A stretch of 64,000 nt of DNA from Armatimonadota bacterium. GTDB taxonomy: Bacteria > Armatimonadota > Zipacnadia > Zipacnadales > UBA5352. This document shows, in pieces, positions 3,450-52,148 of this stretch (position 1 is the stretch's first letter; each line of letters starts with the position of its first letter). The DNA lies in assembly GCA_034722055.1 (NCBI GenBank), contig JAYENL010000314.1:26641-90640 (forward strand), given 5' to 3'. A program made the translations under genes and the position numbers. The notes beneath the pieces are model-generated. The model was not told the DNA's origin. It was given only the letters and a program-made list of their open reading frames with translations, and searched no databases.

Positions 3450-3598
3450 GGCGCGTTCTCAAGTGTCGGTTCGGCGGGGGGACCGCGCAGCTATCAGCTA
3501 CCGGCTATCAGCTAACGGAAACGGCCGACGGCCAGGCTGGGGAGGCACCGCCAGGTGTCCGCGCTTGCGCTGCGTTCGACCAAGTGGTCGAAGCATTG

Positions 3599-3754
3599 AG
3601 TGGCGCTTCGGGCCACAAGCCGGCGGGGGCGCCGGCTTCCCAGGATGGGGAGGCAGCGGGGGTGCCGGCTTCCGAGGATGGGGAGGCAGCGTGGGCGCGG
3701 CTTCTCAGGATGGCATATCTACCCTTTCTGGGGCGCGGGCGCCCTCGCCCGCGG
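3599..3754 (+). repeat. Intergenic repeat element R1, copy a: three tandem units of about 33 bp (GGCGCCGGCTTCCCAGGATGGGGAGGCAGCG) plus a GGGGCGCGGGCGCCCTCGCCCGC tail
   Basis: Three consecutive units at 3626-3657, 3658-3690 and 3691-3723. The 5' end 'GCCACAAGCCGGCGGGGGCGCCGGCTTCCCA' is identical to the inverted copy at about 15785-15814. It lies in a 775-bp gene-free gap. Confidence 0.8.
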
Positions 3755-4003
3755 GCCGTGTCGTGCGGAGGTCGGGCGTGCCTACGCCCGACGCGGGCCG
3801 AAGCCCCGCAGCCGTTGCCGTTGGAGGGGCCGCACGACGACGGGTGCGACGCACCCGGAGGAGGTCGGCCCAACATCGCGTGCCGTTTGAGGGCCCGCTC
3901 GAATGACAGTCGCGCTTCGCGCGACGGCTGGCCTGGGCAGGCCAGGCCTCCGTACGACACTGAGCCGCAGCGCCGCAACTCCCCGAGCCCATCCGTGTGG
4001 AAC

Positions 4004-4082
4004 TCGGGGGCGCCGGCTTCCCAGCATCGCATACCCATTGGTGCTGGGTTGCAGGCGCCCTCGCCCGCAACGGACAATCTGG
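4004..4082 (+). repeat. Intergenic repeat element R1, copy b (one degenerate unit plus the 'CTGGGTTGCAGGCGCCCTCGCCCGCAACGGACAATCTGG' module)
   Basis: Shares 'GGGGCGCCGGCTTCCCAG' with copies a and c. Shares the 'CTGGGTTGCRGGCG...GACAATCTG' module with 6066-6085. Confidence 0.7.
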
Positions 4083-4225
4083 GGCCGCATCCTGGGGCCG
4101 GTTGCGCGCGCGGCGGAGGACGGGTATGATGAGGACACTGCCCGCGGGCGTCCGCCCCGGGCAGTTCGCTCGCCGGGCAGCGCCGGCGGGCAGCGTCTCG
4201 AGCATGCTGGAAAGGTGACCACAGG

Positions 4226-5725: not shown

Positions 5726-5997
5726 CCCGCCGGCAGCATGGGCACGGCCTGCGGGCCGATGCAGACGCCGGGAAGTCGGCCTCGCCACCCCTTCCGGGCC
5801 CCAGAGCAGGAGCCGCGGCAGCATCCCACTAACCTCGCTGGCATGGTGAACATTGGGCTCATCGGCTGCGTCTATTCTGACTGAAGACACAAGAGATGTG
5901 CCGGCCACCGAAGGTTTGGTGGGGGATGCGGGTGCTGTCCCCGCCAGCACCCAAATCCCCCGCCGTTGATTCCCCCCCGATGCGGTGTGAATTCCAA

Positions 5998-6085
5998 GTA
6001 TCGGGAGAACGCGCGGGCGAGGGCGCCCGCGCCCCAATACTTACCTGGGTTGCGGGCGAGCTACCTCCACCCGACAATCTGACGC
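5998..6085 (-). repeat. Intergenic repeat element R1, copy d (mosaic and partial)
   Basis: Contains 'GCGGGCGAGGGCGCCCGCGCCCC', which is the reverse complement of the R1a tail, and 'CTGGGTTGCGGGCG...CCGACAATCTG', which is shared with R1b. Confidence 0.6.
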
Positions 6086-6108
6086 CGTACCCCCCTCGAC
6101 GCCTCCAT

Positions 6109-6137
6109 TTGACAGGCCCCGCGTGCTGTGCTAAGGT
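6109..6137 (+). promoter_or_regulatory. Candidate sigma70-type promoter (TTGACA-17bp-TAAGGT) about 250 nt upstream of cysK
   Basis: TTGACA at 6109-6114, a 17-nt spacer, then TAAGGT at 6132-6137. It is oriented toward cysK. This is an AT-rich hexamer pair within 70% GC DNA. Confidence 0.4.
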
Positions 6138-6384
6138 CTCTGGCGGTCAGTTGACAGAGTTGAGCTGATAGCCGCGCGGCCTTGCCCAGGCGGACACGCA
6201 GATGGCAGCGATCACCCGGCGCTCAGCACGGATCGAGGTGACGGGACCGAGGGTCGGCCGCGTGCGACCGCTGGGTATGATGTCGTAGCTTCACAGGGCC
6301 CCCGCCCGGCCGGGATGTGCGGCCGCTCCGGGCATCGGGGCCTGTTTGCATGTACGGGCGGACGGGCAGGGACGCGGGGAGGCG

Positions 6385-14954: not shown

Positions 14955-15473
14955 GTTGGCTCCTCCCGTCGAGCCGCCTCCAGGGCGGCCAGAACTCGTA
15001 CTGTGGCAGTAGCACACGTCCCGGCGCGGAGGCCGACACGTGCTCTGCGCATGCTTTCCGTAGACTATACTTCCCGCCCCGAGAGAGGGATTCCTTCAGT
15101 GCGGCACATTTGGCTCGCAAACCGGCGGGGCTCGATGTCCGCGGGGCCGGCTTGGCGCGCCTGGCAGCCCTCCTCAGGAGAGCTACTCCGGCGGCGTGTG
15201 CCGGGCCGTTTGGAGGGGCGCGACTACGCCCGCGCCCGGTCGTCGTGCCGTATGGAGGGGCCGGACCACTGTCCGGCCCGGCCTTCTCTCTGGCTCTGGA
15301 TTACCCACAACTTCCGGAGGAAGGCCTGCGATGGAGTTGAGCAAGAGCTCAACCGTGTCGTCGTTCGGAGAGGCCGCCCGAACGGAGCGAGGGTGCCGCC
15401 CGGCCTGCCCGTTAGGTAGTCGAGGCCCCCCGCCTTCACGCCGTTCAGGCCTCTCCAGAGAGAGGTGTCCTGG

Positions 15474-15496
15474 GCCGGGGTGGAACCTTCGGCCTG
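15474..15496 (+). repeat. Intergenic repeat R2 module (GGGCCGGGGTGGAACCTTCGGCC), copy a
   Basis: The same 16-23 bp palindromic core recurs at 48123-48140 and as an inverted pair at 51914-51977. A flanking 'CGGCGGCCCCTCCATCACGGCAAC' is shared with 52040-52070. Confidence 0.75.
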
Positions 15497-15556
15497 TTCG
15501 CTGCGCTCACTGGCCTCACCGGGCGCTACGCGCCCGGCGGCCCCTCCATCACGGCA

Positions 15557-15620
15557 ACCGGCTTTGCCGCGCAGCGTGGGCACGGGCCCTCCACGAGCGC
15601 GGCAGATGTGGGTAATGCAT
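15557..15620 (-). repeat. Intergenic repeat R3 module (ATGCATTACCCACA...CTGCGCGGCAAAGC), copy a
   Basis: Its reverse complement matches 37459-37525: 'ATGCATTACCCACA', 'GCGCGCTCG' and 'CTGCGCGGCAAAGCGGTT'. A second block, 'GGCACCCTCGCT..GGGCGGCCTCTC', is also shared. Confidence 0.7.
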
Positions 15621-15627
15621 AGCTCTC

Positions 15628-15814
15628 TCTGGAGGGCCCGCGCCCCAGCGAAGGTGTTCCATCCTGGCAGGCCGGCGGCCCCCTGGCCCACTGCATCTTC
15701 GGGAAGCCGGCGCCCCCGCCGGCCCACTCCATCCTTGGGAAGCCGGCGCCCCGGCCGGCCCACTCCATGTTTGGGAAGCCGGCGCCCCCGCCGGCTTGTG
15801 GCGCACAGCGCCAC
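15628..15814 (-). repeat. Intergenic repeat element R1, copy c (three tandem units of about 33 bp, inverted orientation)
   Basis: Three 'GGGAAGCCGGCGCCCCCGCCGGCCCACTCCATCCTT' units. The end 'CCCCCGCCGGCTTGTGGCGC' is an exact reverse complement of the R1a 5' end. It lies in a 900-bp gene-free gap. Confidence 0.8.
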
Positions 15815-15922
15815 TGTGGTGATGGCGGGCAGGTGATGCCGAAGCGGCGGGGAATAGCGGTACGGCCTCCATCTGCGGTCCCGTCGCCGACCGAGGCGGG
15901 GCTGGCATGGGAGGGAGCGACC

Positions 15923-37525: not shown

Positions 37526-37768
37526 AATGTCGTTGCTGACGGCGAGCGGCAGACCGCCGGGATAGAAGCCGCCGCCTGCGCAAGACGGCTGCGCACGCGG
37601 CACCCTCGCTACGCTGGGGCGGCCTCTCAGTGCAACAACAGGCCTGAGCCCCGCCTCCGTCACAGGCCTCGGCCAGGATGTGGCTAATGCAGGGCCGTAC
37701 GGCTGGGCGACGGTAAAACGACAATAGCCGGGCGGGTGAGATCGCTTGCGATCTCCGGAAGGGCGCGC

Positions 37769-37928: not shown

Positions 37929-38079
37929 GGTCTCGCTCCTTCCGCCGAACATCGGTTCGTAGTATACGTGGGCCGCCGACGAGAGTCAAGCCCGAGCGAA
38001 TGTTCGTTCGAAAGGAGTCCGCCATGTGGCGGGGCCGAGGCTACAGATGATGCCGAGGGACTCTGCCATTGCCCTTGAC

Positions 38080-38127
38080 GACACTCCTATAATAGTGTAA
38101 CCTGATGGGCACTCTCATAGGAGTGTC
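38080..38127 (+). promoter_or_regulatory. 11-bp perfect inverted repeat (GACACTCCTAT-N26-ATAGGAGTGTC) within an AT-rich promoter-like island upstream of sat
   Basis: Arms at 38080-38090 and 38117-38127. 'TTGACG' (38075-80) and 'TATAAT' (38088-93) lie within or adjacent, but the hexamer spacing is not canonical. It sits 50-95 nt upstream of the sat start. Confidence 0.45.
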
Positions 38128-38175
38128 ACGTCGCGGGGCTGACGGCCATTGATTGAGGGAGGAAGCACACGCACC

Positions 38176-47990: not shown

Positions 47991-48122
47991 GGCGCGTCAC
48001 CTCTCGTGTTCAGTGCCGGGAATTCGCTTACCTTGCCGCACCCGCCACGATGCCCGCGCCCACCATGGAGTGGCCGCCGCGAGCGAGCGGGGCGCGGTCA
48101 GGAGCGGGAGCGAGTGACCGCG

Positions 48123-48140
48123 CAGGTTCCACCCCGGCCC
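48123..48140 (+). repeat. Intergenic repeat R2 module, copy b
   Basis: 'CAGGTTCCACCCCGGCCC', with the flanking 'CCGCGAGCGAGCGG...GAGCGAGTGACC' shared with 51866-51912. Confidence 0.7.
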
Positions 48141-48155
48141 GCGTCCTCCGAGCAG

Positions 48156-51736: not shown

Positions 51737-51913
51737 CGGCCTTGCGATCGGCAGGATGGACGATGCCTGGAAACCGTTGCATGGCTGTGCCTTCCGCGCA
51801 TCTTGCGCGCCGCTTCCGAGCGACAACGGTCTCGATTGCTGTCGTTGCGTGGAGGGGCCGCCGCGAGCGAAGCGAGCGGTGGGAGGTCGGGAGCGTAGCG
51901 AGTGACCTCACAG

Positions 51914-51977
51914 GTTCCACCCCGGCCCATTTCGTTTGATTCCGCGAAGCGGCAGACGGCCGGGCCGGGGTGGAACC
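51914..51977 (+). repeat. Palindromic R2 element: a 16-bp perfect stem (GGTTCCACCCCGGCCC / GGGCCGGGGTGGAACC) with a 32-nt loop between convergent genes. A likely REP or bidirectional terminator
   Basis: Arms at 51914-51929 and 51962-51977. The same 16-mer is present at 15474-15496 and 48123-48140. Confidence 0.75.
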
Positions 51978-52148
51978 TTCGGCCCTTGCGGGCCTCACTC
52001 CTCGCGCCAACGCTTCGCATTGGACGCTCGCAGCGGCCCCTCCATGCGCCACAGGCAACGACCGTGCCTCTCGTAGACGCCCCAGCCTGAGGCAGCACTG
52101 GGGCGTACGTAGCGCAGGAGAGCTGTGGAGTTGTGCGTAGAGGCCAGG

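Follow-up and report, generated by a model that had tools for sequence, protein, structure and literature searches.

What kind of DNA are the GC-rich repeats, here called R1, that recur in three long intergenic spacers of a 64,000-nucleotide stretch from an Armatimonadota bacterium (GenBank assembly GCA_034722055.1, contig JAYENL010000314.1, positions 26,641 to 90,640 of the forward strand; this whole stretch is hereafter called the window), and how did they come to lie there? A preliminary description of this DNA compared them with MITEs (miniature inverted-repeat transposable elements) or with mosaics of repetitive extragenic palindromic (REP) sequences such as bacterial interspersed mosaic elements (BIMEs), and added that they could also encode structured RNAs. 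It now seems reasonably likely that R1 forms a family of composite palindromic repeats that is young, lineage-restricted and non-autonomous, similar to BOX or to BIME/REP elements. Comparison with a sister metagenome-assembled genome (MAG) shows that copies A and B together, and copy C, were gained at new intergenic sites in the window lineage, and that copy D was inherited from an ancestor common to this lineage and the sister MAG.

Four elements and their anatomy

Within the window there are four intergenic R1 elements, A (3599-3752, +), B (4005-4093, +), C (6013-6095) and D (15629-15815, -), and in a gene map based on the G+C content of third codon positions (GC3) every copy falls in a spacer and none in a gene. 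The unit 18-mer CGGGGGCGCCGGCTTCCC occurs six times in the window at up to three mismatches (expected, 0.82), the tail CTGGGGCGCGGGCGCCCTCGCCCGC occurs at 3728 (+), 4044 (+, three mismatches) and 6013 (-) (expected, 0.00), and the right arm CTGGGTTGCRGGCG...GACAATCTG at 4044 and 6045 (expected, 0.00); each of these counts was reached in 0 of 100 shuffles. The 44-nt end of A at 3599-3642, which comprises the head and most of unit 1, is 93% complementary to the end of D at 15772-15815. Modules held in common by these sites, mosaic, intergenic and in both orientations, had been reported in the preliminary description, and that report is borne out. Its count of three tandem units of about 33 bp fits A (three units of 32-33 nt) and fails for D, which has four units of 33-36 nt; Tandem Repeats Finder (TRF) reports a 33-nt period with 2.8 copies and 88% matches at 3623-3713 in A and a 36-nt period with 3.5 copies at 15671-15795 in D. 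The parts of the elements are as follows.

3599-3616, +, R1-A head hairpin (AGTGGCGC-TTCG-GGCCAC), common to A and D
3617-3648, 3649-3681 and 3682-3713, +, R1-A array of three head-to-tail units (TRF and unit identity matrix)
3714-3727, +, R1-A spacer (coordinates verified)
3728-3752, +, R1-A tail CTGGGGCGCGGGCGCCCTCGCCCGC, an imperfect inverted copy of the unit core
4005-4029, +, R1-B single unit, followed by a 14-nt spacer
4044-4068, +, R1-B variant tail, pairing with the B unit in one long hairpin
4069-4093, +, R1-B right end AACGGACAATCTGGGGCCGCATCCT, 1-2 nt before homology with the sister MAG restarts at 4095
6013-6037, mixed orientation, R1-C inverted tail, followed by a 7-nt loop
6045-6072, in the same mixed-orientation element, R1-C arm CTGGGTTGCGGGCGAGCTACCTCCACCC, pairing with the inverted tail
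6073-6095, R1-C right end GACAATCTGACGCCGTACCCCCC, the same right end as in B
15815-15798, -, R1-D head, matching the A head
15797-15765, 15764-15729, 15728-15693 and 15692-15659, -, R1-D four units of 33-36 nt (TRF)
15648-15629, -, R1-D shortened or diverged tail, preceded by a spacer

A and D share one layout, namely a head, a number of direct units (3 and 4, respectively; 32-36 nt), a spacer and one inverted unit as tail, B is a unit-tail hairpin and C an inverted tail pair. The basic element can be described as some 90-100 nt long, with a head hairpin, one unit of about 33 nt, a short spacer and a tail. The core of the unit is the palindrome GCCGGCG-GGGG-CGCCGGC, followed by TTCCCAG, and the tail, which contains the palindrome GCGGGCG-CCCT-CGCCCGC and a 4-nt insertion, matches the reverse-complemented core at 18 of 21 positions. 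The two ends can pair, since the tail repeats the core imperfectly in inverted orientation; in B this inverted repeat (4005-4026 / 4042-4063) is 82% complementary, and in A and D the head hairpin lies outside the inverted pair. The perfect 7-bp stem is kept in four of the eight units (A1, D1, D3 and B1), D2 has one mismatch, and the stems of A2, A3 and D4 are degraded.

The host spacers are the following.

3450-4225, gap 1, between the gene for a 630-aa protein of unknown function and gltX
5726 to about 6384, gap 2, between gltX and a PALP-HcyBio-NIL/Fer4 operon
14955-15922, gap 3 (gene starts refined against relatives), between a divergent pair formed by an AP_endonuc_2-family gene and a SurA-like gene

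These elements were said to fill unusually long gaps. They do sit in long gaps but cover only a part of them: some 245 of the 776 bp of gap 1 and some 190 of the 968 bp of gap 3 are R1 sequence, and other short repeat families and hairpins make up the remainder.

Comparison with related genomes

The GltX encoded in the window is 100% identical to MEA3403793.1 of an Armatimonadota MAG. Syntenic loci were compared from the sister MAG GCA_049975765.1 (L120, with GltX 91% identical, and L248, with AP_endonuc 88% identical; 37 kb) and from more distant lineages (L121/L122, L123/L124, L249/L250, L251 and L252; 76-84% identical; about 88 kb). Among these 125 kb from at least five related lineages, nhmmer profiles of R1 found a copy in L248 only, and none in the roughly 88 kb from the more distant relatives.

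In gap 1, the entire spacer of the sister MAG measures 131 bp and corresponds to window positions 4095-4223 at 90% identity, and the preceding part of the window spacer has no counterpart in L120; the corresponding spacers of L121 (165 bp) and L251 (174 bp) also lack R1. The segment in question is

3450-4094, block of about 645 bp absent from the sister MAG, made up of the part at 3450-3598, R1-A, other hairpin modules and R1-B

Besides A and B, this block holds three or four other GC hairpin modules at 3755-3990, with two 'TGGAGGGGCC/TTGAGGGCCC + hairpin' modules at 3822 and 3887. The conserved 129 bp downstream contain a plausible gltX promoter (TTGCGC at 4102-4107, a 17-nt spacer and TATGAT at 4125-4130), and their conservation implies that the block went in within the handful of bases that separate the upstream stop codon from the -35 element. 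In gap 2, alignment with L120, L121 and L123 leaves the segment of about 5970-6090 that carries C unmatched, with some 30 nt in its place in these relatives, and the block missing from the sister MAG amounts to about 110-130 bp with conserved blocks on either side.

Gap 3 has a different history. The flanks of the spacer are conserved in L248 (window 14960-15126 at 81% and 15774-15921 at 79%), and at L248:7545-7635 there is an R1 element with a head, one unit, a spacer and a full tail of the A/C type. Because this one-unit element lies between conserved flanks and in the same orientation as D, the two are orthologous. Beside the D tail, the window differs from L248 by about 500 bp of other inserted repeat modules, and the outgroup spacers, of 270-292 bp, are without R1. 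By parsimony, D was gained before the split between the window lineage and the sister MAG, and A, B and C after it in the window lineage. The conservation in related genomes that had been proposed as a check on a dispersed family is partial, in that it extends to D in the sister MAG, not to A, B and C, and not to the more distant lineages.

Two further observations concern the gltX spacer. In the left part of the 645-bp block, at 3488-3518, there is a duplicated GCTATCAGCTA(A/C)CG with a period of 14 nt (2.1 copies) and a palindromic core. At L123:9562-9850, at the same place 5' of gltX, there is a different insert of about 290 bp bounded by the inverted repeats GACCGAATTATGTAGGT ... ACCTACATTATTCGGTC, which suggests that this spacer is a recurrent landing site.

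Dispersal or local copying

Several observations weigh against a family of dispersing elements. All four copies lie inside 12.2 kb (3.6-15.8 kb), and none was found in the remaining 48 kb of the window, which include several long spacers; head+unit and unit+spacer+tail profiles (nhmmer) recovered from the 64 kb just the four known elements. No transposase, REP-associated tyrosine transposase (RAYT) or insertion sequence (IS) is present in the window, as judged from Pfam for 40 of the 43 open reading frames with GC3 support and from synteny tables for the other three. No clear target-site duplication is visible when filled and empty sites are compared at gap 1 and at C, where there are only short ambiguous matches (GGGC, CCCCCC). 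Moreover, A and B stand inside one 645-bp block mixed with other modules, so that one compound event or recombination is indistinguishable from separate insertions.

Wider searches brought no copies. Translated R1 has nothing related in public protein sets, and a scan of viral contigs with the 24-nt tail gave no matches. In a genome collection, most of the inspected matches to the 18-mer CGGGGGCGCCGGCTTCCC were nuoF codons for RGGAGFP in unrelated high-GC genomes and the other inspected matches were single and apparently due to chance, and in metagenome contigs the tandem pattern CGCCGGCTTCCCN{15,30}GCCGGCTTCC matched at least 120 loci, none of which was R1 among the matches listed, these being other tandem repeats and coding repeats; both scans are uninformative on R1.

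It is on this evidence that local copying has to be weighed as an explanation, according to which modules were transferred between the spacers of one 12-kb region by segmental duplication or gene conversion. The crowding of four copies within 12 kb, with none in the other 48 kb, keeps it a live rival, and the lone D orthologue in 125 kb of relatives, the lack of a transposase nearby and the empty searches of proteins and viral DNA are all as local copying would predict. However, the flanking sequences are not duplicated, the copies are mosaic (with or without a head, with two types of tail) and occur in both orientations, and they are placed precisely between conserved flanks at three separate spacers. 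In addition, D before the sister split and A, B and C after it means that the copies arose at different times. Taken together, a purely local origin appears rather unlikely.

The searches also turned up three matters that stand apart from the origin of R1. First, CGGGGGCGCCGGCTTCCC has the same letters as the codons usual in high-GC genomes for the conserved NuoF motif RGGAGFP, a coincidence that is a trap for pattern searches. Second, several contigs (L225:4217-4392 and L161:2031-2114; also L141, L150, L184, L198, L205, L216 and L220) carry head-to-tail arrays of a GTAG-tagged hairpin repeat, GTAGCGCCGGCTTCCCAGCCGGCTGT, one array on these metagenome contigs having 5.9 copies of 29-30 nt and another 2.9. 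They show that tandem REP arrays exist in nature; since the 14-mer common to them and R1 was imposed by the search pattern, no relationship to R1 can be inferred. Third, the ends of Logan contigs from this organism were considered as a proxy for R1 copy number, as contig L001 ends in the B tail (4049) and the C tail (6035) and three contigs end in the hairpin modules at 15234-15269. This proxy was rejected because the opposite ends fall within genes, and low coverage explains the breaks.

Array turnover and a possible mechanism of spread

The first units of A and D are 91% identical to each other. Internal units are closest to their array-mates (A2-A3, 85%; D2-D3, 89%), and identity between the arrays (A2/A3 vs. 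D2/D3) is only 69-75%. Together with the difference at the orthologous D locus, where the window has four units and L248 one, this pattern indicates that units are duplicated or lost in place, with arrays that grow and shrink.

If R1 is indeed a non-autonomous dispersed family, new copies would be produced in trans by a transposase or a single-strand DNA nuclease whose gene lies elsewhere in the genome; an RAYT/IS200-like enzyme or an IS with matching inverted ends would be a candidate. The number of units might then change in place by replication slippage or unequal recombination. Copies would persist only where they are harmless, that is, just 5' of the -35 elements of the gltX and PALP-operon promoters or between divergent promoters, and any effect on expression would be a by-product.

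Folding, coding potential and RNA signals

The hairpins of R1 raise the question of whether the elements encode structured regulatory RNAs or form part of such RNAs, for example multi-hairpin small RNAs or stabilisers and terminators in 5' or 3' untranslated regions, with hairpins kept by selection at the RNA level. Local folding is strong. As single-stranded DNA, the head and first unit form two adjacent hairpins, with z-scores against shuffles of -4.1 (the value for A) and -4.5, and B forms one long hairpin (z = -3.76), a fold that 0 of 200 shuffles equalled. The genes on either side of A and B point the same way, and transcription of the upstream gene would continue through these elements; REP and BOX elements are known to act at the RNA level when transcribed (PMC3733652, PMC3049150). 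Against this, the whole-element folds of A and D are no better than those of shuffles (z = -1.3 and +0.3, respectively), three of the eight units have degraded stems, and D lies between divergent promoters. No sigma-70-like promoter or intrinsic terminator was found in or beside the R1 elements. Rfam 15 yielded 0 matches over the window at gathering thresholds and, at E<=10, only chance microRNA-hairpin models at B (24 bits against a threshold of 94 bits). A, B and C are also missing from the sister genome, which has the same genes and promoters. Selection on an RNA product thus appears unlikely to account for R1, and the earlier suggestion of structured RNAs is not supported, given the whole-element folds, the decayed internal hairpins, the lack of promoter or terminator signals and the absence of three of the four copies from the sister. 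Folding of the units, likewise proposed earlier, gave better folds than shuffles for the head with the first unit and for B, and not for A and D as wholes; several internal units have degraded stems. The statement that R1 is not a described element holds, in that no Rfam family matches it.

Two candidate identities were rejected: a degenerate CRISPR array, since the segments between palindromes are conserved and cas genes are absent, and a terminator, since there is no T-run.

Because the periods of 33 and 36 are divisible by 3 and several open frames run through A and D, the arrays could be supposed to encode repeat peptides. This supposition is effectively refuted. In R1 frames, the G+C content of second codon positions (GC2) is 0.68-0.85 and GC3 is likewise 0.68-0.85, compared with 0.40 and 0.94, respectively, in gltX, so there is no coding signature, and frame-breaking indels of 2 nt and 1 nt separate the A units from the D units. 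All six frames of A-D, concatenated, found nothing at E<=10 in an index of 5.8 billion proteins, and the best GC3 frame of D had seven weak matches among 1.8 billion representatives, all of them long, unrelated Gly-rich repeat proteins. The R1 elements are non-coding.

Promoters, leaders and hairpins beside the elements

The position of the elements relative to promoters suggests a further explanation, that the R1 arrays serve as binding sites for some DNA-binding protein, be it a nucleoid protein or a regulator, or as iterons, with one site per 33-36-bp unit. The regular spacing of units would suit such a function, as would their location just 5' of the promoters at 4100-4130 (gltX) and 6110-6138 (PALP operon) and at the divergent pair in gap 3. 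However, the same promoters occur in the sister genome, where A, B and C are absent, the number and sequence of units drift freely, and the genes flanking R1 copies have no common functional theme. A role as binding sites is therefore very improbable, and the reading of R1 as dispersed repeats tolerated at such places is preferred.

The promoter downstream of C, TTGACA-N17-TAAGGT at 6110-6138, is kept together with its leader in all relatives examined. In this promoter and leader of about 250 nt (6108-6384), 5' of the PALP-HcyBio-NIL/Fer4 (homocysteine/cysteine) operon, CGAGGTGA at 6234-6241 is invariant, a GGTCG/CGACC stem covaries, and at 6296-6343 there is a terminator-like hairpin with TGTTTGC after it. 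Five lineages (with GltX identities of about 80-91% where gltX is syntenic) conserve these features, with compensatory changes in 10 predicted pairs, and Rfam gave no match for the leader even at E<=10; on comparative grounds it is a candidate for an unrecognised riboswitch or attenuator.

On the other side of C, 3' of gltX, a nested hairpin of 50 nt at 5916-5965 (TTGGTGGGGGA..GGGTGCTG-TCCCCGC-CAGCACC..TCCCCCGCCG) keeps 89-92% identity in relatives where that of GltX is only 80%; L121 shows a compensatory change from GCTG/CAGC to GCCG/CGGC. This hairpin may be a terminator or a regulatory element. Farther away, at 38070-38135, a promoter-like TTGACG...TATAAT lies 5' of the ATP-sulfurylase/APS-kinase genes and overlaps a possible operator, the 11-nt inverted repeat GACACTCCTAT / ATAGGAGTGTC.

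Other repeats in the same spacers

R1 shares its spacers with other small repeats, and gap 3 is a mosaic of at least four repeat families. One is marked by the motif TGGAG[GT]GG[CG]C, behind which stands a GC hairpin whose sequence varies; eight of the 11 matches to this motif in the window fall in the 10.5% that is intergenic. The stem sequence varies among copies while the pairing is retained, and the motif resembles the start of the D units (ATGGAGTGGGCC...). The positions of these repeats are as follows.

3822, 3887, 15211, 15253, 15548(-), 15593(-), 15630, 48066, 51850 and 52044(-), second family, motif gccgt(n)TGGAGGGGCCGC with a GC-rich hairpin
15471-15494, 48109-48141, 51912-51929 and 51962-51984, small repeat family
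15368-15399 / 37597-37628, small repeat family

One of the two small families is GGGCCGGGGTGGAACCTTCGGCC-like. None of these motifs was found in the spacers of relatives that were scanned (L120, L121, L123, L248 and L249), which points to a recent build-up of such modules in the genome of the window. It might be supposed that R1 and the other intergenic modules are branches of an undescribed superfamily of tagged palindromes in Armatimonadota, defined by a (T)GGAG/GAGGG-GGCC motif with a variable GC hairpin, amplified mainly head to tail, spread by an enzyme other than the GTAG-specific RAYTs so far known and expanded in this single lineage since the sister split; this broader proposal is offered only tentatively and is on balance doubtful.

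Comparison with known repeat systems

By analogy of layout, the closest architecture to that of R1 is BOX of Streptococcus pneumoniae and S. suis, in which boxA and boxC stand around a variable tandem array of boxB; BOX elements measure 67-637 bp, have terminal inverted repeats, cluster with other repeats and differ in boxB number between strains (PMC3049150). Like BOX, R1 has a 5' module, internal units repeated in tandem in varying number (three in A, four in D and one in the L248 orthologue) and a 3' module, its ends are complementary, and it is intergenic and non-coding, with a size set by unit number; it clusters with and adjoins other small repeats, and its unit number differs between lineages. 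The similarity is one of architecture alone, as the sequence of R1 is unrelated to boxA, boxB or boxC (there is no Rfam or other match). R1 is extremely GC-rich, whereas the BOX host has 40% GC, and the phyla differ, Armatimonadota for R1 and Firmicutes for BOX. The R1 tail pairs with the unit and not with the head, which is a self-contained hairpin, and for R1, unlike BOX, no clear target-site duplication is seen and no IS with matching ends is known.

R1 also resembles REP, BIME and REPIN elements, in that its unit, tail and head are short (20-40 nt), GC-rich palindromes outside genes, which occur singly, in clusters or as inverted pairs, B and C being similar to REP dimers or REPINs. REP and BIME elements are mobilised by RAYT Y1 transposases and typically exceed 100 copies per genome, and an RAYT gene (Y1_Tnp) is flanked by its own REPs. 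Unlike REPs, R1 is without a consistent unpaired GTAG (GT[AG]G) or CGTC tag, the tags by which the two REP superfamilies are defined. In the head and in D units 2-4 a GTGG stands before the stems, though within the predicted stem; it is missing from A units 2-3, B and the tails, and there is no CGTC tag in R1. This lack of a consistent tag qualifies the earlier comparison with MITE- or BIME-like mosaic REPs, which otherwise stands in so far as R1 is modular, palindromic and insertion-polymorphic with respect to close relatives. Tandem reiteration and clustering of REPs have been reported for Pseudomonas (PMC3733652), and REP families can be species-specific (PMC3733652, PMC2817692). Nonetheless, head-to-tail dimers are absent or rare in most REP families (PMC3733652), whereas this arrangement dominates A and D. 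In BIMEs the REPs alternate in orientation; in R1, B and C are inverted pairs, and A and D consist of units in direct orientation closed by a single inverted one. Given the missing tag, the rarity of head-to-tail dimers among REP families and the lack of sequence similarity to BOX, R1 is best described as working like both without being assigned to either.

Other classes share fewer of these properties. Mycobacterial interspersed repetitive units (MIRUs), which lie in the intergenic spacers of a high-GC genome, are repeated in tandem with a unit length of tens of bp and a copy number that varies between lineages; they are not known to have head or tail modules or an inverted-repeat architecture, and they often carry small open reading frames coupled to flanking genes. 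As in MIRUs and other intergenic variable-number tandem repeats, R1 units are arranged in tandem in high-GC spacers and differ in copy number between lineages at one locus, but R1 has head and tail modules, an inverted-repeat architecture and also single-unit hairpin elements. With MITEs and the Correia/NEMIS elements it has in common a small size, non-autonomy, imperfect inverted repeats (in A and D with the head hairpin outside the pair), a long hairpin and insertion polymorphism between relatives. Classic MITEs, by contrast, have target-site duplications, terminal inverted repeats that match a resident IS and no internal tandem array, and for R1 neither a clear target-site duplication nor a parent IS was found in the window.

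Implications

Repeats of this kind are well known in Proteobacteria and Firmicutes, and R1 looks like an ordinary sort of bacterial repeat. In Armatimonadota, known for the most part from MAGs, no description of small composite palindromic repeats was found in the literature searched. The R1 elements are probably selfish or neutral DNA. With one inherited copy, which has one unit in the sister and four in the window, and three copies gained since the split, they offer a timed view of the spread of such repeats and of the growth of their arrays. In short-read assemblies of this organism, contig ends fall at these GC-rich hairpin arrays, and the arrays inflate its spacers to 0.8-1 kb, which matters for the assembly and annotation of MAGs.

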